DNA from: Macrostomum lignano
Lineage: Eukaryota
Assembly: GCA_002269645.1 (NCBI GenBank)
Contig: NIVC01000027.1
Coordinates: 806,001-870,000 of the forward strand
DNA length: 64,000 nt
Reading direction: 5' to 3'
How positions within the stretch are numbered: the first letter of the stretch is position 1; every line of letters begins with the position of its first letter. A model generated the notes under the pieces. It was not told the origin of the DNA. It ran no database searches and saw nothing but the letters and a program-made list of their open reading frames with translations. The position numbers were made by a program, and so were the translations under genes. Shown here in pieces: positions 5,397-45,599 of the stretch.

Positions 5397-6118
5397 CTTT
5401 TTATGTGTCAAGCATTTTTTCTCCAGTTCTATTGTTTTGAATGATTCTAGGTATTCGGATAGGTCATACAAATCATTACAACCCAGCATGTCTTTATAAA
5501 AGTCCTCAGTCTCTGCATTCAGAATTAAACTGTCTGTGTCAGTATATAACAGTTTGATTTTATCTTTATATTGCTGCTTCAGGTTATAGAAGAACTTATA
5601 CATTAGACACTTTGATTCATCCAATATAGTGACCCCAGTAAATATTGGCTTTGCTAATTTTGTTTTAGTTTTATAGAATAGGATTGCACCCAAGTGATCA
5701 TTAAATGGATGAAGTTCCTTAAAAGTAGGCTTCGATATACTGGTTAAAAAAACATCCGACTCGGAGGACTTAACGAGCTTCAAGTTTGCTCTTTTTCGTT
5801 CGTTCTCTAGAGTCTTGCCGTAGACAGAATTATTGGCCAGTTTGAACAGATCCTTGTCAAAATATTAGTAGCTTCTGTTCTAAACTGGGTGTTCTTATCG
5901 ATGTAGGGTTTCATCCAGGCTTATTCTGTAAAAGTGAGAGCTCTGTGAACTTTGGTGACCCTACAGCCCAGAGAGATGAAGTATTGAAACAGTTTGTAAT
6001 GGATTTTACACCGTGTCTTGTTGTTCATATTTTGTGTGAGTTTCTTTGTATGTTCTTTCTCCTTCTTAGACAGATACCAAGTTCTATCGTGAGTTTCAAT
6101 AATTTTTGGACATTGAAC
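5397..6118 (-). pseudogene. pPolB: Polinton/Maverick protein-primed DNA polymerase B, C-terminal remnant
   Basis: KPIFTGVTILDESK...LLYTDTDSL (motif C); in 5784-5920 WMKPYID..KLANNSVYGKT.EN (motif B); KLTQNMNNKT..IHY..LG..VTKVHRAL; frameshifted. Confidence 0.9.
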
Positions 6119-6305
6119 TGTAGTCTGGCTTGTTGGTGCGCGTGCACATAGATGTGCACGTTTGGGGGTTGGGGTTTTGCGCTGCAGCGTGTGCGTGCTT
6201 AGGGTGGTTACACCCACCCCAACTTTGGCAATAAATATATTGGCGTGAGCCAGTGAGGTCTCCTCACGTTTTGTTATTCACTGCAACTCAACCCACGGTC
6301 TTACA
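6119..6305 (+). mobile_element. 5' LTR of Gypsy element A (TGTAG...TTACA, 187 bp)
   Basis: TG...CA ends, AATAAA inside, immediately followed by a PBS and a gag start. Confidence 0.8.
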
Positions 6306-6306
6306 C

Positions 6307-6319
6307 TGGTGGCAGCGGT
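6307..6319 (+). other. Primer-binding site TGGTGGCAGCGGT (tRNA-Leu AAG/UAG type)
   Basis: Complementary to the ...ACCGCUGCCACCA 3' end of animal tRNA-Leu; 1 bp after LTR end. Confidence 0.75.
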
Positions 6320-6600
6320 CTCAGTATGGCCAAATCAGAGCAAGCCAGTTTATTGCCTCCAAAGTTTAGCGGTGACTAGCAATCTACGCCCCCCGTTGGG
6401 GAGCCAAAGAAATGCAATACACGTTTTTTTAATAAGCTACATGTATCCTTGAAATCTTAAAAAATCTCCTGTCAAACCTTGTAAGCCTTGACATGTCAGT
6501 AATTCCCCCCCCCACAAGCTTTAACATATCAACTTCCCCCCTTGACATCTCAGCAATGCCCCCAATAAGCCTTGGAAATCTAAAAATATCTGTCAACCTT

Positions 6601-6645
6601 CTAACCCTAACCCTAGCCTAACCCTAACCCTAACCCTAACCCTAA
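6601..6645. repeat. Interstitial telomere-type (CCCTAA)n tract; sister tracts at ~3512-3549, 11961-11997, 15587-15624, 19916-19977
   Basis: Direct reading of CCCTAA units in the same position of each Helitron monomer. Confidence 0.9.
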
Positions 6646-7489
6646 AGCATTGAAATTTCAGTAATTCTCTCTAAGAGTCATTATAGCACTACTACAGCAT
6701 TATAGCGATTCCTTGCAAGCCTCAACATCGTAGGGATTCCCAAATGAATCTCTTAACTTTGACATGAAGCTTCTTTTATTTTTTACATTACGCTTTTTTA
6801 TCAGCGATCCCTCCCCTGAGGAGGCATCAAATAATGTAATAAAAAGTTTTCAATAAACTACATGTAGCTTCTGACTTTAGCCTTGAAATCTCATTTATAC
6901 CCCCGTGAGCCTTGACATCTCAGCTATTCCCCCGTAAGCCTTAACATGTCAGCGATGGCCCCCATAAACCTTGAAATCTGAAAAATCCCCTGCTAACCTT
7001 GAAACCCGATAAAATATAACCCTCAACCCACACCTGACCTAAACCTAACTTTAACCCAACCTAAAGCCTTGAAATCTCAGCAATTCTTCTCCCCTAAGCC
7101 TTGACATTTTAGTGATTCCTTCTTTAAGAATCACAGCACTATAACGATTTCCACCTAGCTTTGACATCGTAGCAATTCCCAAACGAATCTTTTAACTTCG
7201 ACATGACTTTTCTTTTATGTATACATAGTGCTACTTTTATTTTTTACATGACTCTTCTTCTATCAGCGCCCCCCCCCGTGACGAGCCAACAAAGAATGCA
7301 ATAAAAAATGGAGTAAAGTACATGAACTTTGAAGTAGCTTCTGACTTTTGCTTTGACATCTCAGAAACCCCCCCCCGTAATCTCAGTTATTCTCTGAGAG
7401 CCTTTACGTCTCAGTTTTTCTCCCCAGCACAGCATTATAGTTGCATTTAATTTTTACATGAACCCTTCATGTCTGACATGACGTTTCTT

Positions 7490-10400
7490 TTATTCTACCA
7501 TGACGCTTCTAATTTTTTAAATGACACTTTCATTAGTTTTAAATGAGGCTTCTATGATTTTTTCTTGACGCTTCTATGATTTTTACATGATGCTTCTATG
7601 ATTTTTATATGACGTTTCTATAATTGTTTACATGACGCTTCTATGATTGTTTACATGACGCTTCTATGATTGCTTACATGACGCTTCTATGATTTTTTAC
7701 ATGACGCTTCTATGATTGTTTACATGACGCTTCTACGATTTTTTACATGACGCTTCTATGATTGTTTACATGACGCTTCTACGATTTTTACATGACGCTT
7801 CTATGATTGTTTACATGACGCTTCTATGATTGTTTACATGACGCTTCTATGATTTTTAATGACGCTTCTATGATTTTTACATGACGCTTCTATGATTTTT
7901 ATATGACGTTTCTATGATTGTTTACATGACGCTTCTATGATTGTTTACATGACGCTTCTATGATTGCTTACATGACGCTTCTATGATTTTTTACATACGC
8001 TTCTATGATTGTTTACATGACGCTTCTACGATTTTTTACATGACGCTTCTATGATTTTTACATGACGCTTCTACGATTTTTTACATGACGCTTCTATGAT
8101 TGTTTACATGACGCTTCTATGATTGTTTACATGACGCTTCTATGATTGTTTACATGACGCTTCTATGATTGTTTACATGACGCTTCTACGATTTTTTACA
8201 TGACGCTTCTATGATTGTTTACATGACGCTTCTATGTTTGTTTACATGACGCTTCTATGATTGTTTACATGACGCTTCTATGATTTTTTACATGACGCTT
8301 CTATGATTGTTTACATGACGCTTCTATGATTGTTTACATGACGCTTCTATGATTGTTTACATGACGCTTCTACGATTTTTTACATGACGCTTCTATGATT
8401 GTTTACATGACGCTTCTATGATTTATATGACGTTTCTATGATTGTTTACATGACGCTTCTATGATTGTTTACTTGACGCTTCTATGATTGCTTACATGAC
8501 GCTTCTATGATTTTTTACATAACGCTTCTATGATTGTTTACATGACGCTTCTACGATTTTTATATGACGCTTCTATGATTGTTTACATGACGCTTCTACG
8601 ATTTTTTAATGACGCTTCTATGATTTTTTACATGACGCTTCTATGATTTTTTAAATGACGCTTCTATGATTGTTTACATGACGCTTCTACGATTTTTTAC
8701 ATGACGCTTCTATGATTGTTTACATGACGCTTCTATGTTTGTTTACATGACGCTTCTATGATTGTTTACATGACACTTCTATGATTTTTTACATGACGCT
8801 TCTATGATTGTTTACATGACGCTTCTATGATTTTTTACATGACGCTTCTATGATTTTTTACATGACGCTTCTATGATTTTTATATGACGCTTCTACGATT
8901 TTTTACATGACGCTTCTATGATTTTTTAATGACGCTTCTATGATTTTTACATGACGCTTCTATGATTGTTTACATGACGCTTCTATGATTGTTTACATGA
9001 CGCTTCTATGATTTTTTAAATGACGCTTCTATGATTGTTTACATGACGCTTCTGCGATTTTTATATGACGCTTCTATGATTTTTTAAATGACGCTTCTAT
9101 GATTGTTTACATGACGCTTCTATGATTTTTTACATGACGCTTCTATGATTTTTTAAATGACGCTTCTATGATTTTTATATGACGCTTCTACGATTTTTTA
9201 CATGACGCTTCTATGATTGTTTACATGACGCTTCTATGATTTTTTACTTGACGCTTCTATGATTGTTTACATGACGCTTCTACGATTTTTATATGACGCT
9301 TCTATGATTGTTTTTATGACGCTTCTATGATTTTTTACATGACGCTTCTATGATTGTTTACATGACGCTTCTATGATTGTTTACATGACGCTTCTACGAT
9401 TTTTATATGACGCTTCTATGATTTTTTAAAAGACGCTTCTACGATTTTTTAATGACGCTTCTATGATTTTTTACATGACGCTTCTATGATTTTTTAAATG
9501 ACGCTTCTATGATTTTTATATGACGCTTCTACGATTTTTTACGTGACGCTTCTATGATTGTTTACATGACGCTTCTATGATTTTTTACTTGACGCTTCTA
9601 TGATTGTTTACATGACGCTTCTACGATTTTTATATGACGCTTCTATGATTGTTTTTATGACGCTTCTATGATTTTTTACATGACGCTTCTATGATTGTTT
9701 ACATGACGCTTCTATGATTGTTTACATGACGCTTCTACGATTTTTATATGACGCTTCTATGATTTTTTAAAAGACGCTTCTACGATTTTTAATGACGCTT
9801 CTATGATTTTTTACATGACGCTTTTATGATTTTTACATGACGCTTCTATGATTGTTTACATGACGCTTCTATACTTTTTTACATGACGCTTGTATGATTT
9901 TTTTACATGACGCTTCTATGATTTTTTAAATGACGCTTCTATGATTTTTATATGACGCTTCTACGATTTTTTACGTGACGCTTCTATGATTGTTTACATG
10001 ACGCTTCTATGATTTTTTACTTGACGCTTCTATGATTGTTTACATGACGCTTCTACGATTTTTATATGACGCTTCTATGATTGTTTTTATGACGCTTCTA
10101 TGATTTTTTACATGACGCTTCTATGATTGTTTACATGACGCTTCTATGATTGTTTACATGACGCTTCTACGATTTTTATATGACGCTTCTATGATTTTTT
10201 AAAAGACGCTTCTACGATTTTTTAATGACGCTTCTATGATTTTTTACATGACGCTTCTATGACTTTTTAAATGACGCATCTATGATTTTTATATGACGCT
10301 TCTATGATTTTTTACATGACGCTTCTATGATTGTTTACATGACGCTTCTATGATTTTTTAAATGACGCTTCTATGATTTTTTAATGACGCTTCTATGATT

Positions 10401-10809
10401 TTTTACATGACGCTTCTATGATTTTTTACATGACGCTTCTATGATTGTTTACATGACGCTTCTATGATTGTTTACATGACGCTTCTATGATTTTTTACAT
10501 GACGCTTTTATGATTGTTTGTATGACGCTTCTATGTTTGTTTACATGACGCTTCTATGATTGTTTACATGACGCTTCTATGATTTTTTACATGACGCTTC
10601 TATGATTGTTTTTATGACGCTTCTATGATTGTTTACATGACGCTTCTATGATTGTTTACATGACGCTTCTATGATTTTTTTAAATTACGCTTCTATGATT
10701 TTTTTTAGATAACGCTTCTGCGATTTTTAAATGACGCTTCTACGATTTTTTACATGACGCTTCTATGATTGTTTACATGACGCTTCTATGATTTTTACAT
10801 GACGCTTCT
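7490..10809. repeat. 23-bp satellite array inside Helitron A, monomer 1
   Basis: Tandem units; start boundary approximate (degenerate edge). Confidence 0.95.
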
Positions 10810-12709
10810 TTTTAAAAAGTCTTTTAGTTTTCCTGATGTTGAAAAGCTTTAATTAAAAAAATTATACTCTATGAAAATTCGAACCAATTCGAACCAAACT
10901 GCATTTAGCAGTTCAGTTTGTTCACCTCTAGGCTAGCTCTCATCGTTTTGATAACATCAAATTTTTCACTTATATAATTCAACACTTTAAAATCCAAGCA
11001 TAGAGTAAATTACACGAAGCAGTTATGACATAATCAGTTTCTCAGTCAGTCAGTATCAGTTAACAATATGGTTACGCAATTTAAATCAAGTCTGGTGCTA
11101 CGCTTCCACACTGAGTTACAATTCAGTTATGATGCAATCTATTTCAGAATCAGAATTCAACCAGTCAGTTTTTTCTCTAGCATTCTTACAATGCATTTCA
11201 AGTCGAAAAGTTTGCTTGACCTTTGCAAAAAAGCATGTTTTTCGAATATTTAATGCCTTTAGCATCGAGCAATTTCTTAGCCACGATGCATGTACCGTCA
11301 CGGGAAAATTTCTGATCGAACAGTGCAAGTTCGAACAAATGAAATACACGTTTTTTAATAAGCTACATGTAGCCTTGAAATCCTAAAAAATCTCCTGTCA
11401 AACTTCTAATAGCCCTATCCCCAACCCTAAACATAACCCTAAATTTAATATTTTGTCCATGAGTTTTTGCATGATGCTTCTATGATTTTTTGCATGACGC
11501 TTCCATGATTTTTGCATGACGCTTCTATGCTAAACATTTTTAATAAGCTACATGAGCTAAGTTATAAGCTACCCTAACCCTAGCACTAACCCGAATCTTA
11601 ACGCTATAACCCTAACCCTAACCATATACCCTAACACCAACGCTAACACTAACCCTACAGCCTGACATCTGTATAAGTTTGTGAAGCGCTAGTAGTATTT
11701 TTTTAGCTTAGTATCTTAGCGTTGGGGAGCCAAAAAATGCAGTACAAGTTTTGTAATAAGCTACATGTAGCATCACTTTGCAATATCTCTCTGCAATATT
11801 TGCATCTCTTTGCAATAATATACTGCTTTGCAAGCAGTCCCTTGTAAGCCTTGACATGTCAGTAATCCCCCCCCACAAGCTTTAACATTTCAACTTCCCC
11901 CTTGACATCTCAGCGATGCTCCCCATAAGCCATGAAATCTAAAAAAATCTGTCAACTTTCTAACCCTAACCCTAACCCTAACCTAACCTAACCCTAAAGC
12001 ATTGACATTTCAGTAATTCTCTCTAAGAGTCATTATAGCACTACTACAGCATTATAGCGATTCCCTGCAAGCCTCGACATCGTAGGGATTCCCAAATGAA
12101 TCTCTTAACTTCGACATGAAGCTTCTTATTTTTTACATTACGCTTTTTCTATCAGCGATCCCTCCCGTGAGGAGCCAACAAATAATGTAATAAAAAGTTT
12201 TCAATAGACTACATGTAGCTTCTGACTTTAGCCTTGACATCTCATTTATTCCCCATGAGCCTTGACATCTCAGCTATTCCCCTCGTAAGCCTTGAAATGT
12301 CAGCAATGCCCCATAAACCTTGATATCTGAAAAATCCCCTGTTAACCTTGAAACCCGCTAAAATCTAACCCTCAACCTTTGACACTACGCTTTGACATCG
12401 TAGCAATTCCCAAATTAATATTTTAACTTCGATATGACTCTTCTTTTATGTATACATAGTGCTTCTTTTCTTTTTTACATGACTCTTCTTCTATCAGCGC
12501 CCCCCCCGTGGCGAGCCAACAAAGAAGGTAATAAAAAAATTGAGTAAACTACATGTACTTTGAAGTAGCTTCTGACTTTTGCTTTGACATCTCAGAAACC
12601 CCCCCCCCTAATCTCAGTTATTCTCCGTGAGCCTTGACATCTCAGTAATTCTCCCCAGCACAGCACAATAGCTTCATTTAATTTTTACATGACACTTCTT
12701 TCATGTCTG

Positions 12710-14437
12710 ACATGACGCTTCTTTTGATTTTTACATGACGCTTCTATGATTTCTAAAATGACACTTACATTAGTTTTTATATAAGGCTTCTATGACTTTT
12801 TACATGACGCTTCTATGATTGTTTATATGACGTTTCTATGATGTTTTTAGCTCATTAGCTTTTGATGTTTGACGCTTCTATGATTTCTTAAATGACACTT
12901 CCATTAGTTTTTATATAAGTTTTGTAATAAGTTTTGTATAAGTTTTGTAATTTTTACATGACGCTTCTACGATTGTTTACATGACGTTTCTATGATGTTT
13001 TTACATGACGCTTCTATGATTTTTTACATGACGCTTCTATGATTTTTTACAGGACCCTTTTTTTTATTTTTACATGACGCTTCTATGATTGTCTACATGA
13101 CGCTTCTATACTTTTTTACATGACGCTTGTATGATTTTTTTACATGACGCTTCTATGATTTTTTACATGACGCTTCTATGATTGTTTACATGACGCTTCT
13201 ATGATTGTTTACATGACGCTTCTATGATTTTTCTACATGACGTTTCTATGATTTTTTACATGACGCTTCTATGATTTTTACATGACGCTTCTATGATGTT
13301 TTAAATGTCGCTTCTATGATTTTTTAAATGACGCTTCTATGATTTTTTACATGACGCTTCTATGATTTTTTACATGACGCTTTTATGATTTTTACATGAC
13401 GCTTCTATGATTGTTTACATGACGCTTCTATACTTTTTTACATGACGCTTGTATGATTTTTTTACATGACGCTTCTATGATTTTTTAAATGACGCTTCTA
13501 TGATTTTTATATGACGCTTCTACGATTTTTTACGTGACGCTTCTATGATTGTTTACATGACGCTTCTATGATTTTTTACTTGACGCTTCTATGATTGTTT
13601 ACATGACGCTTCTACGATTTTTATATGACGCTTCTATGATTGTTTTTATGACGCTTCTATGATTTTTTACATGACGCTTCTATGATTGTTTACATGACGC
13701 TTCTATGATTGTTTACATGACGCTTCTACGATTTTTATATGACGCTTCTATGATTTTTTAAAAGACGCTTCTACGATTTTTTAATGACGCTTCTATGATT
13801 TTTTACATGACGCTTCTATGACTTTTTAAATGACGCATCTATGATTTTTATATGACGCTTCTATGATTTTTTACATGACGCTTCTATGATTGTTTACATG
13901 ACGCTTCTATGATTTTTTAAATGACGCTTCTATGATTTTTTAATGACGCTTCTATGATTTTTTACATGACGCTTCTATGATTTTTTACATGACGCTTCTA
14001 TGATTGTTTACATGACGCTTCTATGATTGTTTACATGACGCTTCTATGATTTTTTACATGACGCTTTTATGATTGTTTTTATGACGCTTCTATGTTTGTT
14101 TACATGACGCTTCTATGATTGTTTACATGACGCTTCTTTGATTTTTTACATGACGCTTCTATGATTTTTTACATGACGCTTCTATGATTGTTTACATGAC
14201 GCTTCTATGATTTTTTACATGACGCTTCTATGATTGTTTTTATGACGCTTCTATGATTGTTTACATGACGCTTCTATGATTGTTTACATGACGCTTCTAT
14301 GATTTTTTTAAATTACGCTTCTATGATTTTTTTTAGATAACGCTTCTGCGATTTTTAAATGACGCTTCTACGATTTTTTACATGACGCTTCTATGATTGT
14401 TTACATGACGCTTCTATGATTTTTACATGACGCTTCT
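12710..14437. repeat. 23-bp satellite array inside Helitron A, monomer 2
   Basis: Tandem units. Confidence 0.95.
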
Positions 14438-16339
14438 TTTTAAAAAGTCTTTTAGTTTTCCTGATGTTGAAAAGCTTTAATTAAAAAAATTATACTCTAT
14501 GAAAATTCGAACCAATTCGAACCAAACTGCATTTAGCAGTTCAGTTTGTTCACCTCTAGGCTAGCTCTCATCGTTTTGATAACATCAAATTTTTCACTTA
14601 TATAATTCAACACTTTAAAATCCAAGCATAGAGTAAATTACACGAAGCAGTTATGACATAATCAGTTTCTCAGTCAGTCAGTATCAGTTAACAATATGGT
14701 TACGCAATTTAAATCAAGTCTGGTGCTACGCTTCCACACTGAGTTACAATTCAGTTATGATGCAATCTATTTCAGAATCAGAATTCAACCAGTCAGTTTT
14801 TTCTCTAGCATTCTTACAATGCATTTCAAGTCGAAAAGTTTGCTTGACCTTTGCAAAAAAGCATGTTTTTCGAATATTTAATGCCTTTAGCATCGAGCAA
14901 TTTCTTAGCCACGATGCATGTACCGTCACGGGAAAATTTCTGATCGAACAGTGCAAGTTCGAACAAATGAAATACACGTTTTTTAATAAGCTACATGTAG
15001 CCTTGAAATCCTAAAAATCTCCTGTCAAACTTCTAATAGCCCTATCCCCAACCCTAAACATAACCCTAAATTTAATATTTTGTCCATGAGTTTTTGCATG
15101 ATGCTTCTATGATTTTTTGCATGACGCTTCCATGATTTTTGCATGACGCTTCTATGCTAAACATTTTTAATAAGCTACATGAGCTAAGTTATAAGCTACC
15201 CTAACCCTAGCACTAACCCGAATCTTAACGCTATAACCCTAACCCTAACCATATACCCTAACACCAACGCTAACACTAACCCTACAGCCTGACATCTGTA
15301 TAAGTTTGTGAAGCGCTAGTAGTATTTTTTTAGCTTAGTATCTTAGCGTTGGGGAGCCAAAAAATGCAGTACAAGTTTTGTAATAAGCTACATGTAGCAT
15401 CACTTTGCAATATCTCTCTGCAATATTTGCATCTCTTTGCAATAATATACTGCTTTGCAAGCAGTCCCTTGTAAGCCTTGACATGTCAGTAATCCCCCCC
15501 CACAAGCTTTAACATTTCAACTTCCCCCCTTGACATCTCAGCGATGCTCCCATAAGCCATGAAATCTAAAAAAATCTGTCAACTTTCTAACCCTAACCCT
15601 AACCCTAACCTAACCTAACCCTAAAGCATTGACATTTCAGTAATTCTCTCTAAGAGTCATTATAGCACTACTACAGCATTATAGCGATTCCCTGCAAGCC
15701 TCGACATCGTAGGGATTCCCAAATGAATCTCTTAACTTCGACATGAAGCTTCTTATTTTTTACATTACGCTTTTTCTATCAGCGATCCCTCCCGTGAGGA
15801 GCCAACAAATAATGTAATAAAAGTTTTCAATAGACTACATGTAGCTTCTGACTTTAGCCTTGACATCTCATTTATTCCCCCATGAGCCTTGACATCTCAG
15901 CTATTCCCCTCGTAAGCCTTGAAATGTCAGCAATGCCCCCATAAACCTTGATATCTGAAAAATCCCCTGTTAACCTTGAAACCCGCTAAAATCTAACCCT
16001 CAACCTTTGACACTACGCTTTGACATCGTAGCAATTCCCAAATTAATATTTTAACTTCGATATGACTCTTCTTTTATGTATACATAGTGCTTCTTTTCTT
16101 TTTTACATGACTCTTCTTCTATCAGCGCCCCCCCCGTGGCGAGCCAACAAAGAAGGTAATAAAAAAATTGAGTAAACTACATGTACTTTGAAGTAGCTTC
16201 TGACTTTTGCTTTGACATCTCAGAAACCCCCCCCCCCCTAATCTCAGTTATTCTCCGTGAGCCTTGACATCTCAGTAATTCTCCCCAGCACAGCACAATA
16301 GCTTCATTTAATTTTTACATGACACTTCTTTCATGTCTG

Positions 16340-18600
16340 ACATGACGCTTCTTTTGATTTTTACATGACGCTTCTATGATTTCTAAAATGACACTTACAT
16401 TAGTTTTTATATAAGGCTTCTATGACTTTTTACATGACGCTTCTATGATTGTTTATATGACGTTTCTATGATGTTTTTAGCTCATTAGCTTTTGATGTTT
16501 GACGCTTCTATGATTTCTTAAATGACACTTCCATTAGTTTTTATATAAGTTTTGTAATAAGTTTTGTATAAGTTTTGTAATTTTTACATGACGCTTCTAC
16601 GATTGTTTACATGACGTTTCTATGATGTTTTTACATGACGCTTCTATGATTTTTTACATGACGCTTCTATGATTTTTTACAGGACCCTTTTTTTTATTTT
16701 TACATGACGCTTCTATGATTGTCTACATGACGCTTCTATACTTTTTTACATGACGCTTGTATGATTTTTTTACATGACGCTTCTATGATTTTTTACATGA
16801 CGCTTCTATGATTGTTTACATGACGCTTCTATGATTGTTTACATGACGCTTCTATGATTTTTCTACATGACGTTTCTATGATTTTTTACATGACGCTTCT
16901 ATGATTTTTACATGACGCTTCTATGATGTTTTAAATGTCGCTTCTATGATTTTTTAAATGACGCTTCTATGATTTTTTACATGACGCTTCTATGATTTTT
17001 TACATGACGCTTTTATGATTTTTACATGACGCTTCTATGATTGTTTACATGACGCTTCTATACTTTTTTACATGACGCTTGTATGATTTTTTTACATGAC
17101 GCTTCTATGATTTTTTACATGACGCTTCTATGATTTTTTACATGACCCTTTTTTTTATTTTTACATGACGCTTCTATGATTGTCTACATGACGCTTCTAT
17201 ACTTTTTTACATGACGCTTGTATGATTTTTTTACATGACGCTTCTATGATTTTTTACATGACGCTTCTATGATGTTTTAAATGTCGCTTCTATGATTGTT
17301 TACATGACGCTTCTATGATTTTTCTACATGACGTTTCTATGATTTTTTACATGACGCTTCTATGATTTTTACATGACGCTTCTATGATGTTTTAAATGTC
17401 GCTTCTATGATTTTTTTAAATGACGCTTCTATGATTTTTTACATGACGCTTCTATGATTTTTTACATGACGCTTTTATGATTTTTACATGACGCTTCTAT
17501 GATTGTTTACATGACGCTTCTATACTTTTTTACATGACGCTTGTATGATTTTTTTACATGACGCTTCTATGATTTTTTACATGACGCTTCTATGATTGTT
17601 TACAGGACGCTTCTATGATTGTTTACATGACGCTTCTATGACTTTTTTACATGACGCTTCTATGATTGTTTACATGACGCTTCTATGATTTTTTAAATGA
17701 CGCTTCTATGATTTTTTAATGACGCTTCTATGATTTTTTACATGACGCTTCTATGATTTTTTACATGACGCTTCTATGATTGTTTACATGACGCTTCTAT
17801 GATTGTTTACATGACGCTTCTATGATTTTTTACATGACGCTTTTATGATTGTTTTTATGACGCTTCTATGTTTGTTTACATGACGCTTCTATGATTGTTT
17901 ACATGACGCTTCTATGATTTTTTACATGACGCTTCTATGATTTTTTAAATGACGCTTCTATGATTGTTTACATGACGCTTCTATGATTTTTTACATGACG
18001 CTTCTATGATTGTTTTTATGACGCTTCTATGATTGTTTACATGACGCTTCTATGATTGTTTACATGACGCTTCTATGATTTTTTTAAATTACGCTTCTAT
18101 GATTTTTTTTAGATAACGCTTCTGCGATTTTTAAATGACGCTTCTACGATTTTTTACATGACGCTTCTATGATTTTTATATGACGCTTCTACGATTGTTT
18201 ACATGACGCTTTTATGATTGTTTACATGACGCTTCTATACTTTTTTACATGACGCTTGTATGATTTTTTTACATGACGCTTCTATGATTTTTATATGACG
18301 CTTCTACGATTGTTTACATGACGCTTCTATGATTATTTACATGACGCTTCGATTATTTTACATGACTCTTCTATGATTTTTTACATGACGCTTCTATGAT
18401 TGTTTACATGACGCTTCTATGATTGTTTACATGACGCTTCAATGATTCTTTAAATGACGCATTTATGATTTTTATATGACGCTTCTATGATTTTTTAAAT
18501 GACGCTTCTACGATTTTTTACATGACGCTTCTATGATTTTTTAAATGACGCTTCTACGATTTTTTACATGACGCTTCTATGATTTTCACATGACGATTCT
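16340..18600. repeat. 23-bp satellite array inside Helitron A, monomer 3
   Basis: Tandem units. Confidence 0.95.
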
Positions 18601-24132: not shown

Positions 24133-24136
24133 AATT

Positions 24137-24190: not shown

Positions 24191-24202
24191 ATTCAAAATT
24201 CC

Positions 24203-24775: not shown

Positions 24776-24824
24776 GGTTCCTAAAGAATAAAGAATAAAA
24801 AGAATAAAAAATTAAAGTAAAATT

Positions 24825-29900: not shown

Positions 29901-30185
29901 CGGTCGCCGCTCGAGGCGCCGTACTCAGGACCGTATCGCGTTAAACAGCGAGCCGACAAGTTCTTCGTTATTTTCCTACCGTCAGGCGACACCGAATCTG
30001 TCTCTATCGATCGCCTCAAGCCGGCGCGACTGTCGTCTCCAAAGCATGCTGTTAAGCCGGCCGCGAACTCGCTGCCGGAAAAAGCAGCCAAACCAGAGGA
30101 AACGGTAGACTCATCACCTCCTAGAGCGACCTCTAGCGGGCGCCGAGTCCAATTCCGACGCCATAATGATTACATTTATTATTAA
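26980..30185 (+). pseudogene. pol: Gypsy B pol: protease-RT-RNase H-integrase (frameshifts near 28420 and 29660)
   Basis: FLVDTGAS; [11 protein letters not shown]; YIDD; LYTDAS..ELLAAY..DHKPL; HHCC; DIVGP; HPQTNGKVERAH; SGPYRV (GPY/F). Confidence 0.95.
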
Positions 30186-31025
30186 CCTTCTAATATATAA
30201 TGTTTACTGACTATTCTTCTCACTGTTCTCAGTATTTCTAAATATTCGACCTCTCGTAAACCATTTTTTTATTGCATTCCCACCCACTTCGTTTTGATCG
30301 TTGAGCCATCCCACCATCTTTGACTTCAGTTACGGTCTCTTTTCTTCGTGCTCCGCATTTGGAGGGGGGAGTCATATAGATATTTTGTTATACTTTTATT
30401 TGCGGCTCGGTTTGCCATGATTTTACCATAGATTAATTTCCTTTTACAGTTCTTTCTCGCAGTTAAGTTTCTCGCCCCAATCCTTTCATCTTTTAACTCA
30501 TAAAATATATTTTTCAAGTTTACTTGTAGTTTCAGTACAAGTTCCTTTTCATCGTAGTATTTTAGTATGTCCTTTTCGAAAATGATTGGGATCTTTTTAA
30601 ATGGAAATTTATTTTTTGTTAAACCGTGAAAGCAAAAGTTCTCTTGCTCTTTTATCGATGTACGAGTACTTCCTCTCTAGCATTTTGTCTAGGTTGTGAA
30701 CAAACTATTTTCTATTCTCATCCTTTTGCCGGTCTTTGCTGCGCCAAGGAGAACAGCTAACCGCTTGTAAGCATCTGGCAAGCCATCACCTGTTGGTGAT
30801 TTAAAAGACAGATCGGAAGATGAAGTCCCTGGAGACGATTGTCGGGGTGTAAATACTCTATCACTGATTCGCTTAATAGATTGGATAGATTTGTTGCAAA
30901 CGCTGCCACTCATCTGGGTGCTGGTTTCTGTACTGGGCAATCTTATTTGGTTCTACTTCGCTTCTATTACTTCTTCGGTTGTAAGTTGCTTTTGAGTTTG
31001 AGTTTGAGTTTGAGGAGTTTGAGCT

Positions 31026-31825
31026 GTAGCCGCTTGGGATCGGGTTTGTGATATAGCCGCTTGGGATCGGGTTTGAGATATAGCCATGGATGAATGAATA
31101 GAATGGATTGCTATTCTGGCTCTGGCTATTTTCGTTTTTGACTCTTTTGAATCCGGTTCCCCCCGTGCCTTTTCATTGGTTGATGATTGCCATAGACAAT
31201 TTTCGGCCTTCGCCCCTTTCTTTCGATGCACAAGTGCAAAGAACTGATTTTATTGTAGACGAATCGACTCTCGAATCGTGCTTGTAGGTCTTCCCCCTTT
31301 ATTTCAAAACACGAGCGAAAGCGCTTGTGCATCGAAAGAAAGGGGCGAAGGCCGAAAATTGTCTATGGCAATCATCAACCAATGAAAAGGCACGGGGGGG
31401 AACCGGATGCAAAAGAGTCAAAAACGAAAATAGCCAGAGCCAGAATAGCAATCCATTCTATTCATTCACCCATGGATATAGCCGCTTGGGATCGGGTTTG
31501 AGATATTGCCGCTTGGGATCGGGTTTGAGATATAGCCGATTGGGATCGGGTTTGAGATATAGCCGCTTGGGATCGGGTTTGAGATATAGCCGCTTGGGAT
31601 CGGGTTTGAGATATAGCCGCTTGGGATCGGGTTTGAGATGTAGCCGCTTGGGATCGGGTTTGAGATATAGCCGCTTGGGATCGGGTTTGAGATGTAGCCG
31701 CTTGGGATCGGGTTTGAGATATAGCCGCTTGGGATCGGGTTTGAGATATAGCCGCTTGGGATCGGGTTTGAGATATAGCCGCTTGGGATCGGGTTTGAGA
31801 TGTAGCCCCTTGGCATCGGGTTTGA
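31026..31825. repeat. 27-bp tandem repeat GATATAGCCGCTTGGGATCGGGTTTGA (~15 copies, split by the MITE)
   Basis: Direct reading; in frame with the Polinton ORF as SQTRSQAAI units. Confidence 0.95.
31085..31474. mobile_element. MITE with ~150-bp TIRs (CATGGATGAATGAATAG...), 8-bp TSD GATATAGC; P-like or hAT-like
   Basis: 31085-31233 is the reverse complement of ~31325-31474; TSD at 31077-31084 and 31475-31482. Confidence 0.88.
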
Positions 31826-32219
31826 GGAGCCCTATTTATAACCTCTTCTTGATCCGGCAAATTAAACCATTGTTTAAAGTGTTTAGATTTTCTAAACGTG
31901 TTCAAGAATATTCCGTTTTCATGTAAAAAGAATCGAATTTCCGGGTTCTTGAGGATGTCTATATCTCTCTCTAAAGCGAAGGTAACCAGATCTCTATAAT
32001 TCTTTAACTGCTTCTCGGATATTTTTTTCTGATTTTTGGTCATGTAGTCAAGTAAACTTTGAGTGAAGGGGATTCGTTTAGAATTTTGACCTTTTGTGAC
32101 GTTGTCAGTTTAAGGTGGTCCCAAAAAGGGCCGTTGGACTGCTGTTTCTCTATAGTTTCAACCCTTCAGTTTCACCGTTTCAACTAAACTTTTCCATTTG
32201 TTTATTGCGACGTTTACTT

Positions 32220-32848
32220 GTAGTAGTGCCCAACGATTTTGTGGCAATTTCTAATTCACTGTATATTTTACTATCCTCTCTCGCGACCGTATAAAATTGG
32301 CACGATCGATAATTTCAAGTTCTCTCGCCAGCCAATGAAAACTCTCCGTGTTTGCGCTACCCCCTTTTCGCTCTTTATTAGCCCCCCCGTCTGGCGGCGG
32401 GCTGGTTTTTCACTTTCCTTCGTTCTGTGCTTGTCTGTTCTTCGCGGCTCTTGTTTTCCTTCTCCTGCCTTCTGTCTGCCGCCTTATCTCTCGCCACGGC
32501 TCCGCTGTCTGGGCCAGCCTGTTTACACTGCCACTGTCTGCCACGGCTAACGCCAATCTCACCACTACGCATCTGCCTCTTCTGTGCTCATCGCCGCTAC
32601 TCACCACGTTGCATCGCCCTGCATCAATCGCCTACCACTCGACTACAATTTCTAATTCACCTTCAATTCAAAACCATTGTTGCAGCCGCCAGTGCCCCAA
32701 AAGTACAATAAGTTCTGTATTAACGTTAACCAAATTTGAATATTGATTTAAACAATAAACAACTACGACAGTTACCTGCCTTGTATGCCAAGTGCTCCGC
32801 TACACAATCCGCTTCTCAAGACTTGACTCGATTCATTTTGGGACTACG
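32220..32848 (+). mobile_element. Probable solo LTR (degraded TGTAGT...ACTAC ends), candidate TSD ACTT
   Basis: ACTT on both flanks; TATAAAA near 32290 and AATAAA near 32753; interrupts the Polinton ORF; ends imperfect. Confidence 0.45.
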
Positions 32849-33072
32849 ACTTACGGCAACTCTCGTAAAACGGCCCTTCTAAGGGTCATAGCCTCAACAC
32901 CAATAATCGTGACACCTTTGATAACTGATATCCTTTGTGTTGTGACTTCTAGGTGACAGTCCGCTGGTTGATTAGTGATTTGTTCTCGCCATTTGCTAAT
33001 TCCAAAGACGTATTTAAACCCGCCGGCTGCTTGCTCCCCTACTGGACCAAAAAAGTTATCAGTCACTTTTAG

Positions 33073-33134: not shown

Positions 33135-33432
33135 GGGTTGTGACAGTTGGAATGTTAGACAAAACATTTTGCAGCTGACTCTCTTGAATATCACCTATAG
33201 TTTCCTTTACTGTGTCAATGTTTTTCTTTGCTTCTGTGTATCCAGGTTTGTGAAACTCGGTGGCTGCTTGAATAAACTCATTGTACGACTGCTGCTCTTT
33301 GTTGATTAAGTATTAAGTTAGTGACTCGTTTCTCCGCTTGTGCTAGCTTATCCAGTTCAGTGATATGATTAAAAATTTCTGTTTCATTTTAAATATATAT
33401 TTTTATTTTCATCTAAAATATTTGCTAAAAAA

Positions 33433-34170
33433 ATAAACGATCCTCTGACACCAGTTTTCTACAAGATTAACAAACCAATTTTAAGCGATTACAGCACCAT
33501 CAAAGCGTCACAAGTTAGATTTCTTAGTCATGAGAACCAGAATGAAACTAATCTAGGTCCAGGTCAAACGCTGACTTTCACATACAATGGTTGCTCGTCA
33601 TTGGTCAATGTCCACAGTCTAAGAAGTGGATTCTACATGACTTTCCAATTCAAGACAAAAGGTGGAGACGATGCTGCTCATGCCAATGACGATAAGCATA
33701 ATGCAAATGTGGCATTAATCAGTAACTTCTGGGCGTACATGTTCAAAGAGTTTAGCGTGAACGAATGGAAGCACAAATTTGGAGAGAATAGCCAACTTTG
33801 GCATTGTTTATGACACGCAGTGTTTGATTGAGAACCCGGATTTCATCCAGTTGGGAAGTGGAGCTGGCTTTATTCCCAATGAGCACAAAGGGATGTGGAT
33901 GATCCTGGTTACAAAAAGAGAAAGGAGAGATACAACTATGCTCTTGCGGGTGCAACCGAGGCTGTTAAGAATTCACTGCATAGGGCTGTAGATATTTTTG
34001 CACCTTTGAGGTTTATGAGTGGCTTCTGTAATACGCTCGTAGTTTCAATCGGTTGACAAGCAACTTTAGCTACACATTTAGGTTGACTAGAGATGATCGA
34101 GATCGAGGACTTTGGACTAGAGCTAACCAGATGGAGGTAAAATTAGCTGGTGTGGAGTTGTATATTGAAA
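33433..34170 (+). pseudogene. Polinton/adintovirus major capsid protein, N-terminal remnant
   Basis: KPILSDYSTIK...TLTFTYNG...NFWAYMF...VDIFAPLRFMSGF...FRLTRDD pattern recalled from Polinton MCP; several frameshifts; lies upstream of the C-terminal part and penton. Confidence 0.6.
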
Positions 34171-34585
34171 CCTGTAATAACTTTGAAGGCAAAGGCTGGC
34201 TTGTTGCACGAATTAGTTTGCTCTGCTGAACTGAGGATTGCAGACACATACCGGAAAAGAAGTGCCCTTCCCAAGCAGAGTGGGAGGCACCCACAGACCA
34301 AGAAGTATCTAGACTGCGCAAGCCCCATTCCCTGCCTTGGCGTGTTTTTTTTGACAAAAACGCTGTGGAAAAAATGGTCCCTTGCTCCTGCCAAAAAAAA
34401 TCGATAATATGTGAAGGTGAAGGGGAACAGGATAGTGGGTACAGAGCATTTTACTGGTCATTATGGTTTCTAACCCACCTTTTATATGCGTTCAAATAAG
34501 CCATTCTCTCAGTGCTAAAACAACACAAAATTTACCTACCTACTAGAATCAAACCGATTTAATTCAAGCAACTTTGTATCAAGCG

Positions 34586-37500
34586 ATGGAAGAAGTTAAT
34601 TCCTCCAAGCCGTCGAAGACTCGAAAATGTGGCAGCTATTGCAGTGCTTTTGGTTGCACGAATAGCGCAGCTTCAACTTCCGGAGTCTCCTTCCATTCCT
34701 TTCCCAAGGACGATCAGACGAAGAAGAAGTGGGTCGCAGCACTGAGGCGAAAATACTTCAAACCGTCAAAAAGTTCAAAAGTCTGCTCAGAACACTTTTC
34801 TGAGTCTTGTTTCAAGGAGCAGTTTGAAGGCTTCTTGCCCAACGCCAGAAGAAGACTGTATCCGCACGCTGTTCCTTCAATCTTTCCTGCGTTTCCGGAA
34901 CATCTGCAGCCAGCTGAGAAGAAGAGAAAGACAATCACAGCAGCCGCGGCCGCTCGAGAACTTGATTTTGAAATATTTCAGGCGCCTCAAGTAGGCAGCG
35001 AGACGAAATCTGATTTGGAAGCCATTACTAACAATGACGATCTTCCTCAGCCAGACCTTCATGCCAACTGTGTAAGCAGGGAAGATTTCAATACGAAGGT
35101 AAGAGCTTTGAAAAATCTGAGGCGCAGGTACAATAGGCTTCTAGCGGCTCATGCCAAGTCCAAGAAAGGTGCGAAAGCTATTGAAATCTTACAGCGTTCT
35201 CTTCGAAACAAGTACCGCAAAATTCGATCATTGCGCTCAAAGCATAGGCAAATTAAGCGAAGAGCGAGAACCCTGAAGGAGGCAATCGGAGAGTTGAGGA
35301 AAAAGAGCATTCTGAATGAAGCGGCTGCGTCGCGCCTGAATTTTTTGACCTCGAATTCTTTGATTAGCAGCATTTTGCCTCAAAGCAATAAGCGGACAAG
35401 AAAGTTTCCTACTGAAGTGCGAAAATTCGCGTCCACCTTGCACTTCTACAGCCCCAAAGCCTATGAATATGTCAGAAAGTATTTTCAGCTTCCGCACCCT
35501 GCGTCTCTTCGTAGATGGATTTCAAACGCTAAATGCTTTCCTGGATTTTGTGATCAGGCTTTCCAAGAACTTTCTCATCGACGCAGCTCCGACGACGGCA
35601 CTGCCTTTGACTACTGCAATGTAGTGGCCGATGAGATGTCATTGGAATCAATGATTGAATGGAATTCGAATGAAAGCATGTTCTTCGGCTATGTTGACAA
35701 AGGAGATGGCAAGGCAAGTGATCAGGAGGCGACGTCGGCGTTGGTAGTGATGGCTGTGGGTCTGAAGAACTATTGGAAGTTGCCATTGGGTTATTTTCTA
35801 GTAAATGGTGTGGATGGTGAATTTTTGTCTAGTGTTGTAGAAGAATCAATTCAGAGGCTTTATCAGGTTGGCGTTCTCGCCACATCGTTCACATGCGATG
35901 GAACGCAGCACAACATTCGAGCTATTGAACTTCTTGGGGCTAAAATTAGTTCTCCGGACTCAATTGTCGCCACGTTCCCTCATCCTTGTGACCCAAGCAT
36001 TCAGGTTTCTGCCTTCCTCGATCCGCCTCATATGTTGAAGCTGATTCGCAATCAGTGGCAATCAATGGGCACGATAGTTTGGCCAAATAGGGGGAATATT
36101 GATAGGAAATGTTGCAGCAAGTTCAGGAGAGTCAAGGGCTCAAAATGGGAAATAAACTAAGCAGGCATCACATTAACTTTGCCAATTTAAAGATGAAGGT
36201 CCATTTGGCATCCCAGCTTTTTAGTAAGTCAGTTGCTGACTCCCTGCGGTGGGTACATCAGCAGGCTTTGGCCGGATTCGAGCACCATGATGTACTTGTG
36301 ACGGCAGATTTTATTGAGTGTAACAGCCCTAGCTCGTGCCTACGTAATTTACGCGCATTATTTTTCCTATATTCTTATTCAGTCTATACAATTATTTCCA
36401 TAAATTCAATTACTTTGCATTGAGCACTATTTTTATATATATTCATGTCTGTAGTGCTAAAACCGAAATATTATTGTTATAATGCATACGCCATGATGGC
36501 AAAAAATTACTATAAAAGCGAGCTAAAATATACGGTAGAAAATCATCCTTCGATCCTTCCTTCCGATGGGCTTGGTATATGCAAGCTTCTTCCCTGTTCT
36601 CGAGCACTAGATGAACAGTTGTGCTAAAAATAGAACTTAGATTCGTCAGCTTTCCTTCCTTTTCTTAGAGAAGCGTACGATAAAGGCGTACAGCCACTCC
36701 CTTCCCCTCGAGCGCTCCCCAGAGCGATCCAAACCCACTCAAACCCCCCCCCCCTTTCTCGGACGTACAATAGTCCCAAGAAACCCTTCCCGCGCTTCCC
36801 CAGACATAGTGATTGCCAAGCCGTCCCGGCTAATTTTCCCTTAATATTAGACTCCTAATTCCGCCACGTAATTCCCAATGAAGCAACCTGCCCTCCCTGC
36901 CAGCATTCCCTATTAAGCACTAGAATTCCCCACTAGCGCGCCAGGCAACTCTAATCCACCGCGAAGCCCTTTAACCCCCCATCCATATCCCCCGGACTGA
37001 GAAGAAACTTGTGTCTTGCCGCTCGGACACACCACGCCACCAGGAGCAACCTACGGCTTACTCCTGTTAGTAGTATAAATTGCGCAGTTCTCCCCCGAAT
37101 CCGAAGACATTCCCAAGAAATCCCCAATAAGCCCCGACCCCTACAACAAATTGGTAGCAGCGTTGTCTACCCTACGACAAATTGGTGTCAGCAACAAGGA
37201 AACCACTTCCCTCCCCCAAGACCCCTGTAGCATGAGCACATGAATTACTTGTTCGACGCCTTTAACTCCAAGCGACTAGTAAATTACGGGGCCAAAATGG
37301 CTCTAAGAGCTGACAACCAGTCGGACTCTATTGACTTCTTTTCTGACTCGATTAAGCTTCTCGGAAGTCTTGAAAATCTGTCTGGACGCAAAATTGTTGA
37401 AACTGCAAAGAAAACAGGTTTTCTCGGCTTCATGGTGAATTGTGAGGCTGTTATGGCCCTTGCCAAGTATTTGCTTTCAAGTTGTGCTTTTTTCTTTCTT

Positions 37501-38200
37501 TGCACTTACAAGTTGTCGCAGGATTTTCTTGAGTTATTTTTTAACGCCGTCAGACTTCGAAATGGCTGGAATCACAATCCGACTCCGAGACAGTTTCGCC
37601 CAGCCTTTAGACAGTTACTAGTGCACGCTGGAGGTGGAATTCTCCAATCGACTAGTCCCAATGTTAAGCAACAGGATGCCACTATTCAGTTGTCATTATC
37701 TTGTCTGCCTTCGTCACAATCAAGAGGCAGGAAAACCTTAATGGAAGCAGATAAGTGCTCAGAACAGTTTGGGTTTAAGCCTTAATTCCATTCAACATTG
37801 TGTGAATGCATCAAAATGCGAAGTATGCCAGTCGATTGTGTATTACATTGCAGGCGCAGTGGTCCGTAGTATGCTTAAATTAATTGAATGCGCCCCGTGC
37901 AGATCAGCACTCATTTCCAGCACTGAAATGTCAGCGGCTGCACGGTTGCCCTGCTCTCTTGTCACCATGAAAAATGTGCTGAATAAAGAAGGGACTGGGG
38001 GGTTGATTTTTCCAAGCAACAATGTCTTGCAAGTTTTGCTTCATGCCGAAACAATCATTCGACGTTCAAACTATAACAGCGGATTTTCTAGCGATGTGGC
38101 TGTCCAGGATTGCGCATGTCAGTTGATGCATTTCCCGAACTTGACTTGCATTCCGCGGCTGCCAGCATTGGCATTGAATCCCACAAATTTCATTTGATTC
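34586..38200 (+). pseudogene. THAP-domain P-element transposase, disrupted
   Basis: THAP (CSAFGC..W..VCSEHF..AVPSIF); TLHFYSPKAYEYVR; DEM; TCDG; DPPHMLKLIRN; KMKVHLASQLFS; LSQDFLELFF; frameshift ~36110 and solo-LTR insertion. Confidence 0.93.
36319..37232. mobile_element. Solo LTR (914 bp, TGTAACA...TGTAGCA), 4-bp TSD TGAG, inside the transposase
   Basis: TG...CA ends; TGAG at 36315-36318 and 37233-37236; removal restores ADFIE|HMNYLFDAFNS in frame. Confidence 0.85.
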
Positions 38201-38879
38201 GCATCATGGCGCTGCTCTACATGCGGGTTTGAATGAAGGTGGCGAAAGACCTTTCATGTCTCAGAAGAAAATCAGGAAAGAGACAAAAGCTTCTACGAAC
38301 AGCGGTATTTCTTAATCTGTAGTTTAGCCTATTCTAGTGGATACCTGGTAAGTTGAACTCATTATTTTGATTCTGCAAGTTTGTATACAGGCAAGCTTTA
38401 ATTAAATTAAAATAGTATTTAGAAAGAATCTCCTGAAAAATACTTATAAACGAGTCTAAAAAGCTATGATAATATTTTTGTTGTTGTTGTGCCCTGTAGG
38501 AACCGAAAAGCAAACGAGTGGGAGTGGTTTAGGAAGGGAAATTTATTACCCACTATCGACCGCGGAGAGGGGTTTGCTGGGTGCCATTTTTATAACTGGG
38601 AAAGAGGCACACTTTTTTTACTCTCCATGCGCAGTCTAGTCTTACTTATTGGTCTGTGGAAGCACCTATAAGGAAGTATATTTGGGGTGGGTACGCCCCG
38701 AGCTTCGCAGAGGGAAGGCATGATTGGGACGCCCATAGACAGTGGAGAGATACGGACAATGGGTGAGTCACACGCAGACGGACGGACAGACAGAGAGAGA
38801 TGTTGGAACCAGACAGACACGCAGTGATTCAGTCAAGGGGAAGGTGCATACGCAAAACACTAAGAGTTCATAATGTCCG

Positions 38880-39413
38880 TGGCACAAACGCTACAAAATC
38901 ATTGAGCCAAAGACTGCACTAAAAGCAGAATACTTGAAGGCTATTGAGAATGATATTGATGTTGCCTATACAGCTTATATGTGTAGATATGAGCGCAATG
39001 ACTCAAGACACAATATTTGCATTAAAGAAGGCTCCTGTAGCAACCCAGGGTACATTATTGTCACTCTGAGGAGTACGACGACTAGTGTAGGTAAATATCT
39101 ACATGGAAATGTTCGATCGATTCAACATGAGATCAGTGACAATTTATACCCTGCATTGCCACAGAATGGAGAGTTCCCAGAGAACAAGATTAGTAAATTT
39201 TACAATGAACTGGCGGACTTGGCTGTAAAAGAGAATAATGGGATCGCCATGACAGCACTGCAGTATAAAGAGTTGTACCCAACTTTCGGAGTTGACGTGT
39301 CAGCTAGACAAATGCCTGCAGACAATAGACCTGTTAATATTGTTACAAATATTGAGCGGAAAGAACAAGGTGCCGCAACGGCTGGTGATCTGTTTATTAT
39401 CTATGCGTTTTAG
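38880..39413 (+). pseudogene. Polinton major capsid protein, C-terminal remnant
   Basis: PGYIIVTL...LYP...FPENKISKFYNEL...YPTFGVDVS..Q pattern of the MCP C-terminus; directly upstream of penton. Confidence 0.65.
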
Positions 39414-39495
39414 ATGAAAATAAAGGTAAACCTGATCAACAATTCATCCAGTAAAGTTTATGTTTAAAAAATAAAGTAAAAAGTAGGTTAGAAAA

Positions 39496-40040
39496 ATGGA
39501 AGCCATTGTCGAAAGATTAAATAACGTTGTTTCACACTCAAAGGAAAGCATTCCGATTACCGTTACTGGAAGGATTACTGAATCTAGTGGAGTGTTTATA
39601 GAAAATCTGGAGCAGCCTATTCGATTGGATGCTGAGGCAAATTATCATGTTTATCTGAATGATTTTACAGGTTGGTCGAATGTTCCCAATGTGACCCTGG
39701 CTAATAACAAGTTCTATTACAAATGGAAATATGTGACAGCAGATGTGATTTCCCTTCCCGTAAGCACACAGGGGATAGATACTTATAATTATTTCTTTTA
39801 ATTCGTAGTAATTTGAGTCTTGATTGGGTCTTCAAAGGTAAACGTACAAATGTACTTTTTAATATTTCAAACTCTGTTGCTGGCGGTCAGATGTTGGTAG
39901 AGAAACCCAATCCAGTGAAGAGAGTTGTTCTGAGCAATAAAGAAATTAATGAGATTGCTCTGAAGTTTGAAACAGAGGATGGAGATGGAGTGGATTTTAA
40001 TGGTGAAGAGTTTGCGTTAACAATTGTGATTAAGAGAATG
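39496..40040 (+). pseudogene. Polinton minor capsid (penton) remnant with internal deletion
   Basis: PIRLD...YHVYL...SNVPNV..NNKFYY...ISLP and VAGGQMLVEKP...EDGDGVDFNGEEFALTIVIKR. Confidence 0.78.
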
Positions 40041-40199
40041 TTATGCTGTGTTTTGTGTCAAAAATGTAGCAGTCAGTTGGTCGCGAGATGTGAATGTTTT
40101 CTTAAGCTTTATAGTTTTATATTTTGTGGTAGCTGATTATAGATTTTAGTAGATGTTTATTTTTTCCGTCCTAGAGAGTTGTTTTGCACTTTAACCCCT

Positions 40200-40437
40200 T
40201 TAGATAAACAATTGTAGATATTGCAATGAGATAGCTGATTTTAAATGTAAGCGCATTGTGTATGAATAGATTTTAGTAGATGTTGATCTAAGGGGGATTT
40301 AGGTTGTTTTATGGATGAGGTGTGGTTGACTTTTTTATCGCCCTTAGATGAGCGGTTGTAGATATTGCATGGAGGTAGCTGATTTTAAATGTAAGAGCAT
40401 TATGTATGAATAGATTTTATTAGATGTTGATCTAAGA
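40200..40437. repeat. Two diverged ~90-bp copies spaced ~145 bp apart
   Basis: TTGTAGATATTGCA...GCTGATTTTAAATGTAAG...GATGTTGATCTAAG occurs twice. Confidence 0.75.
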
Positions 40438-40545
40438 GACTTTTTGAAAATTTTGTCCTAGAACTCCCTTTTACTTACTACTAATTGAAAAAAATTTCTG
40501 ACTTTGTGCCAGACCATCGGCTTCGTGACTTTGTGGCGAATAGTC

Positions 40546-45590: not shown

Positions 45591-45599
45591 GCCGTAATG

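Follow-up and report, generated by a model that had tools for sequence, protein, structure and literature searches.

A 64,000-nucleotide stretch of the Macrostomum lignano genome (GCA_002269645.1, NIVC01000027.1:806,001-870,000, forward strand), hereafter the window, contains genes of a Polinton/Maverick virus scattered among transposable elements, which raises the question whether the genome plan of the virus can be read from such a locus. The original prediction described a shattered virus of a possibly undescribed lineage, the gene order of which could be recovered by excising six or seven insertions. We searched the window using six-frame translation and Pfam scans and compared the pieces with other copies of the same family in this genome. 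With high confidence, we consider the locus to be a decayed remnant of a high-copy Polinton family, in a minor form in which the PLA2-integrase-pX-pPolB-protease block is inverted; this copy likely entered via its own integrase and later lost function through deletions, the arrival of at least nine host elements and a tandem duplication. Directly visible in the sequences are the viral pieces and how they match the family, the existence of two gene orders, the loss of genes and the insertions. The gene order seen at the locus is that of the minor form, shortened by deletion, and the family can be read plainly in many further copies. Taken by itself, the locus is a strongly decayed copy of an ordinary kind, and such leftovers are common.

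Viral genes of the window copy

The element spans 44,860 bases, from L047:5623, 4.4 kb upstream of the window start, to window position 40482 (identifiers such as C85, C3483, C305 and C38 denote family copies in the same genome, and L-numbers extracted stretches, L047 being the one upstream of the window). Within 5397..40450, the range originally assigned to the virus, viral DNA amounts to 6,263 bases and a terminal repeat of ~290 bp, spread over 35 kb, less than the 7-8 kb that had been estimated. The left terminal repeat, the adenain-type protease gene and the end of pPolB (L047:5623-7873) lie ~4.4 kb before the window. The predicted genes themselves, namely pPolB, a small open reading frame (ORF), a packaging ATPase and a large ORF (minus strand) and the major capsid protein (MCP) and penton (plus strand), were all found on the expected strands by translation, Pfam and family matches.

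The pPolB gene is represented in the window by two minus-strand pieces that are 63-81% identical to the family pPolB. The polymerase-domain piece (5407..6116; 67-73% in tblastn searches with family pPolB) belongs to a segment, 5405-6290, that is identical at 886 of 886 bases to a piece 8.4 kb away upstream (G000:C27:802993-803873) and represents the second copy of an 8.4-kb tandem duplication beginning inside pPolB. The middle piece (23256..24139), interrupted by stops and frameshifts, covers an endonuclease-VII-like zinc domain (PF02945, E 1.1e-5) and the start of the exonuclease (PF03175, E 2.9e-5, below the cut-off). Approximately 280 bases of pPolB are missing next to the retrotransposon piece at 22552..23255, and the C85 stretch L061:4527-4809 has no match in the window. 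The protease gene (L047:6013-6601) is broken; in a relative, it matches Peptidase_C5 with an E-value of 2.6e-4, at the cut-off. The largest loss, ~4.7 kb, is located at a junction with a short microsatellite of period 7 (24140..24191), where the end of the small ORF, a 250-amino-acid (aa) ORF, PLA2, integrase, pX and the N-terminal half of pPolB (546 codons) are absent; none of the 40 scored matches spans this junction. No match to the rve integrase was detected in the window, L047 or L052.

To the right of the junction, the small ORF, which has ~280 aa in relatives, is preserved at 24192..24489 (minus strand; 94% to three type-B copies), with its 5' part at 24664-24772. The A32/FtsK-type packaging ATPase (24824..25633, minus strand) retains an open frame at 24974-25633 and is broken near its end; it matches Pox_A32 above the cut-off (E 3.6e-7) and is 87% identical to the family ATPase over 264 of 267 residues. 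A 165-aa family ORF (minus strand) separates the ATPase from the large ORF, with one piece at 25660..25835, another at 30533-30724 and the 3' part deleted. The large ORF (~400 aa in relatives; 30612-31076, 31766-32094 and 32915-33367, minus strand) contains an expanded 27-bp repeat, and the family protein has no usable match in Pfam or Atlas. On the plus strand, a frameshifted first MCP piece (33430..34172; 92% to C85) and a second piece with a premature stop (38896..39452) are 67% and 85% identical, respectively, to a family MCP that matches PF21738 (E 1.1e-8). The penton gene (39499..40041, plus strand) covers residues 8-107 and 208-291 of the family protein at 78-81% identity, ~100 central codons being deleted, and is followed by the right terminal inverted repeat (40190..40482), which ends in the (ACT)2 motif. 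Pfam gives no match for the MCP and penton pieces of the window themselves. The structural model of the family MCP (predicted local distance difference test, pLDDT, 53, which is low) matches the Sputnik and PBCV-1 capsids at E 1e-11, and the best matches of the family penton model (pLDDT 67) are the mavirus (E 2.8e-6, TM 0.30) and adenovirus pentons. Judging from these models, the family MCP is predicted to fold as a double jelly roll and the penton as a single one, and the proposed Polinton identity holds, given that the capsid and penton pieces of the window match these family proteins.

The idea that only insertions had damaged the virus does not survive: five genes or gene parts are deleted in the window copy, which is broken by loss of the ~280 bases of pPolB, the 3' part of the 165-aa ORF, the ~100 penton codons and the ~4.7 kb at 24140-24191. 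The predicted six or seven insertions correspond to six interrupted sites, which hold nine host elements if nested ones are counted. By the defining Polinton features, as given in the literature (PMC8097293; 10.1101/2023.08.22.554363; PMC4028283; PMC8502044), the family is a Polinton family, whereas the window copy lacks both the integrase and a matching target-site duplication; because the rve integrase is absent from the window, L047 and L052, we class this copy as a deleted remnant and not as a complete member.

A family with two gene orders

The ATPase gene has at least 150 matches in the M. lignano genome (150 scored of 674 candidates), with 85-100% identity. At this gene, the best 11 copies other than the window itself are 98.8-100% alike and 92.9-93.8% identical to the window. 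The family gene set comprises penton, MCP, the 400-aa ORF, the 165-aa ORF, ATPase, ORFs of ~280 and ~250 aa, adenain protease, pPolB with an endonuclease-VII-like domain, a pX-like protein (PF05829), rve integrase and a parvovirus-type PLA2 (PF08398). PLA2 and the pX-like protein are two separate ORFs on opposite strands, and PLA2 gives a single-piece alignment in each of the 16 locus rows that were matched. The rve integrase was identified in two main-form copies (E 1.2e-8 and 8.2e-10) as well as in C85, C3483 and C305. Main-form copies with both ends (n=3) are 14.4-16.9 kb long. No intron was found with Rfam in 7 family stretches, and the GGNCC motif is at most mildly reduced (5-23 seen vs 7-25 expected). 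The region C1424:26500-36400 was rejected as a family member: it belongs to a different Polinton family (27-33% identity) and falls outside the pPolB clade.

In the main form, the protease, pPolB, pX and integrase genes face the ATPase block, and PLA2 is located near the end. Among copies picked from match lists and not at random, this order was found in 9 of 10 taken from the ATPase list and in 13 of 16 taken from those of MCP, pPolB and the small ORF; the remaining 4 were untypeable. In the window, pPolB is co-directional with the ATPase. The whole PLA2-integrase-pX-pPolB-protease block is flipped in C85, C3483 and C305, C38 shows the same flipped direction across a deletion, and in L047, as in some ten further fragments, the protease adjoins the terminal repeat. 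Among 40 matches scored of 268 candidates, 3 cross the flipped junction completely and 1 does so in part. At L111:79-5083 (C1159) lies a flipped-form element of 5 kb that has both terminal repeats but retains pieces of protease, pPolB and penton only. Five ends consisting of protease and terminal repeat (L095, L096, L098, L101 and L102, from C462 and C1424) are 98-100% alike where compared and apparently spread by segmental duplication. Terminal repeats at L109:50-320 (C2747) and L110:9597-9868 (C571) have no family gene within 9.9 kb; these would be solo ends or non-autonomous derivatives.

The C85 copy is flanked by a perfect 6-bp target-site duplication and its flanks are unlike those of the window, so that C85 and the window cannot be the same insertion and the flipped form likely integrated on its own. 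Because the flipped form is found at several unrelated sites, and in view of the C85 duplication, it would once have copied and integrated itself; it is probably older than the latest burst of the main form. A site-specific inversion switch was considered and rejected: no inverted repeats were detected at the block ends and the flipped-form copies cluster in the pPolB tree. For the same reasons, we prefer one historic inversion. Among viral and metagenome contigs, no related MCP locus was confirmed, so the ancestral order is not readable from outside relatives.

The pieces assigned to the window copy behave as parts of this family. Of 13 pieces from the window or L047, 12 resemble C85 (86-95%) more than they do any of seven main-form copies. 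The margin is wide in all of these but the first MCP piece (92% to C85 vs 91% to the main form). The exception is the ATPase, which is 92% identical to C85 and 93-94% identical to five of the seven main-form copies, suggestive of gene exchange between the forms as far as sequence identities can tell. Where the window departs from C85, third codon positions are over-represented, yet many of the changes are replacements (e.g. 24 of 41 and 27 of 52), a pattern that fits divergence under selection followed by decay. FastTree phylogenies were built from single natural pieces of pPolB (143 aa, 62 rows, including 47 of 120 listed homologs) and MCP (169 aa, 88 rows; 74 of 159 proteins aligned long enough). 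In the pPolB tree, 17 of 18 rows from this genome form one clade (support 1.0), the 18th being the other family, and the window groups with C85, C538 and three fragments (0.87-0.88). In the MCP tree, the window is sister to C85 (0.90) within a clade of all 14 rows from this genome (0.96). A grouping of the pieces with different lineages, which the original prediction had named as an outcome that would overturn it, was not seen.

How novel the lineage is depends on the gene. Of 7992 sequences scored against pPolB, 3732 are homologs at E<=1e-30; identity to the best 120 is 42-47%, the named ones come from cnidarians, an echinoderm and molluscs, and PF03175 is listed for part of them. The MCP has only 10 matches in a set of 5.8 billion, at 66-76% and 40-44% identity and with no informative names; a profile search, likewise without informative names, recovered 654 proteins at E<=0.001 and only 24 at 1e-30. 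For the penton, 13 matches were obtained. By sequence comparison, the capsid gene appears isolated, with no named close relative, so the suggestion of an undescribed lineage is fair for the capsid module and less so for pPolB.

Several observations weigh against this account of a family in two mobile forms. Given how the copies were picked, the counts do not yield the relative abundance of the two forms. Scores are identical for C3483 and C305, which may represent a single locus that was duplicated, and the flipped-form copies are all fragmentary, none holding the whole gene set in one piece. The search for intact relatives proposed with the original prediction returned many copies but no unbroken pPolB frame in any of the 13 stretches with the whole pPolB span (longest, 955 of ~1280 codons); present-day activity of the main form thus lacks support from the pPolB frames, in which some breaks may stem from assembly errors. 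The trees are based on 143 and 169 residues, with FastTree local support. Finally, the large junction at 24140-24191 is without confirmation in independent sequence data, as is the 8.4-kb duplication.

Origin and decay of the locus

It is very improbable that the locus represents a lone undescribed virus that kept an original order pPolB-small ORF-ATPase-large ORF-MCP-penton, hidden only by insertions. This reading can draw on the shared direction of pPolB and ATPase, which is that of the flipped form, and on the scarcity of MCP matches. In its strong form, it is refuted by the abundance of the family in this genome, by the junction at which pPolB and the small ORF became neighbours only through deletion, and by the absence of integrase, pX, PLA2 and half of pPolB, with the protease outside the window. 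More evenly balanced is whether a single old flipped-form copy lost 4.7 kb by internal deletion while its ends drifted apart in place, which we rate at an even chance, or whether the left and right halves come from two different flipped-form copies joined at 24140-24191, for which the odds are about even too. Both terminal repeats were found (~290 bp, 73-80% alike), with the family motifs (AGT)2//(ACT)2 at the two ends in the right orientation, and the protease and the end of pPolB are 91-94% like C85, as is the right half; both observations suit a single copy. So do the internal deletions in the same region of C38, C85 and C1159, and the main-form copy C2034, which likewise has no matching duplication. 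The internal repeats of the terminal repeats also blur the alignments. Against a single copy, the window ends are 79.7% alike over 133 aligned bases, whereas those of C85 are 91.5% alike by the same measure and those of C1293 match at 296 of 298 positions; moreover, the best matches of the two window ends are in other copies (88% and 86%) and not in one another. With the 5-8% coding divergence of the right half from C85 as the ceiling, the 27 mismatches in 133 have a probability of 0.0003 even at 10% expected. The target-site flanks of the window match at 3 of 6 bases, compared to 6 of 6 in C85 and C864, 5 of 6 in C1293 and 1 of 6 in C2034. If two copies had been joined, through ectopic recombination or through break repair, a single event would account for the large gap, the dissimilar ends and the lack of a proper duplication.

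Some of the left part could also be a product of the assembly, in that the duplicated pPolB piece and the tandem units of the left 22 kb arose from mis-joining across satellite arrays. The complete identity of the pPolB duplicate (886/886), the 99.0-99.7% identity of the larger units and the kilobase satellite arrays that flank them speak for this explanation. Other units of the array differ by 5-8%, implying that part of the array is real and older, and the right-half junctions are present in sequencing runs of three studies, a check that covered the right part; on balance, we find an artefact unlikely. The reading favored here remains that of a decayed flipped-form remnant. A broader proposal, which we advance only tentatively and consider rather doubtful as a whole, is that an undescribed Polinton clade with a deeply divergent capsid module settled in this genome in two successive forms, related by inversion of the block, both of which integrated themselves and swapped genes, and that two older-form copies make up the locus as a chimera.

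After losing its function, the copy would have gathered its left-side insertions in the order LTR element, satellite array, duplication. The long terminal repeat (LTR) in pPolB (6117..6377, plus strand) is a dispersed repeat (40 matches scored of 1239 candidates) that is contiguous in L120 with a gag piece. A truncated gag piece of the same retrotransposon, 96.6% identical to L120 and with a zf-CCHC match (E 1.8e-7), is located at 22552..23255 (plus strand). Nested in this LTR retrotransposon remnant is a host-element array (6378..22551) of a 23-bp satellite, CTAACC runs and ~3.6-kb tandem units, which includes the remainder of the 8.4-kb duplication together with another gag fragment (19308-19626). 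The satellite/CTAACC element of window positions 1-22551 may be of the Helentron or DINE-1-like kind; the same satellite-bearing element is present in the C85 copy at a different site. A tenth host insertion interrupts the protease gene upstream of the window (L047:6148-6484, 340 bp, 77% like part of L104).

In the right half, a solo LTR with a 4-bp target-site duplication (24491..24663) interrupts the small ORF; its left junction (24490) is bridged by contigs from 4 of 4 runs, from 3 studies. It belongs to the same family as a Gypsy LTR retrotransposon in the 165-aa ORF (25836..30539, plus strand) that encodes gag, protease, reverse transcriptase, RNase H and integrase and has both LTRs, which differ by 1 mismatch in 165 aligned positions, plus gaps, and a 4-bp target-site duplication. 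LTRs usually start with TGT; all three LTRs of this Gypsy family (24491, 25836 and 30375) start with TAT and end with ACA. In the C85 copy, a long interspersed nuclear element (LINE) encoding reverse transcriptase and endonuclease (L039:5087-8388) lies within ~25 bases of the Gypsy site of the window, and the 165-aa ORF is a possible insertion hotspot. The large ORF is interrupted by a 390-bp hairpin element (31085..31474; arms with 150 matches and 3 mismatches), which we take to be of hAT type given its 8-bp target-site duplication, and by a dispersed 820-bp repeat with TG...CA ends and a 5-bp target-site duplication (32095..32914) that is likely a solo LTR. Three nested elements occupy the MCP gene (34173..38894). 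The outermost, an LTR-like sequence (34173-34291 and 38659-38894), is split by a P-type transposon (34292-38658) with THAP and P transposase domains and an 8-bp duplication matching at 7 of 8 bases, and inside this transposon lies a 914-bp LTR-like repeat (36319-37232); the three would have entered in that order, from the outermost to the innermost.

Beyond the right end of the element, a stray 180-bp penton fragment (45659-45832), inverted, 74% like 39855-40038 and 5 kb outside the element, is a trace of another copy. The same flank contains two ankyrin-repeat ORFs, possibly exons of a host or transposon gene (41141-42773), reverse transcriptase and GIY-YIG ORFs in tandem (43726-45625), which we assume to be a Penelope-type retroelement, an ORF with a QRICH1-type domain (58803-59468; E 7.9e-7, just below the cut-off), and minisatellites of 18, 22, 30 and 31 bp at 46025-47060, 51360-51613, 53861-54273 and 62702-63998.

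Relation to known Polintons and adintoviruses

The interest of the locus is modest and lies in the two genome forms of its family, the mosaic genes and the unplaced capsid. In this family, a Polinton would have inverted its module for replication and integration without ceasing to spread, and the apparent gene exchange among co-resident copies bears on the reshuffling of modules in Polintons. The hundreds of candidate copies, some nearly identical, offer a dataset for timing two waves, and the capsid gene fills a gap in which there is no named protein nearby. Our literature search, conducted mostly at the level of abstracts and with Repbase outside its scope, returned no paper describing this family, nor one with two module orientations in a single family. 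Orthopolintovirales-related insertions have been reported in flatworms (10.1101/2025.04.19.649669), and the supplements of that work may cover this family. Neither the decay nor a flipped module is new in kind, because 96% of vertebrate Maverick loci have been reported as degraded and module orientation differs in two amphibians, Rhinella and Xenopus (PMC8097293).

With the Polintons/Mavericks of animals (PMC8097293; 10.1101/2023.08.22.554363), the family shares pPolB, rve integrase, adenain, packaging ATPase and double jelly-roll major and minor capsid proteins, as well as an element length of 14.4-16.9 kb (in three main-form copies), ends of the (AGT)2//(ACT)2 type, 6-bp duplications, mostly degraded loci and host-dependent module orientation. 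In contrast to the two-module plan of vertebrate elements, the integrase here travels with pPolB and the protease, and the penton follows the MCP. Unlike in those Polintons, two orientations of one module occur within one family and one genome, and the window copy is without an integrase and a clean duplication.

Features shared with the Alpha adintoviruses (PMC8502044) are the PF03175-type pPolB, the parvovirus-type PLA2 and the adenovirus pX-like domain. Whereas PLA2 and X are fused there (PLA2X), the two are separate ORFs in this family, both lost from the window copy, and the family MCP is far from named proteins. No match to the N-terminal OTU domain of PolB was detected in Pfam, Atlas or PDB sequences, searches that differ from the profile-profile methods used in PMC8502044. 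By analogy, the family would function like an Alpha adintovirus element, and we do not assign membership. The C. elegans eri-6/7 locus (10.1101/2024.01.15.575659) likewise combines clustered Polinton remnants with proposed ectopic recombination between copies or terminal repeats; there, host genes are inverted, whereas in M. lignano the rearranged block is inside the element and a chimera is only suspected.

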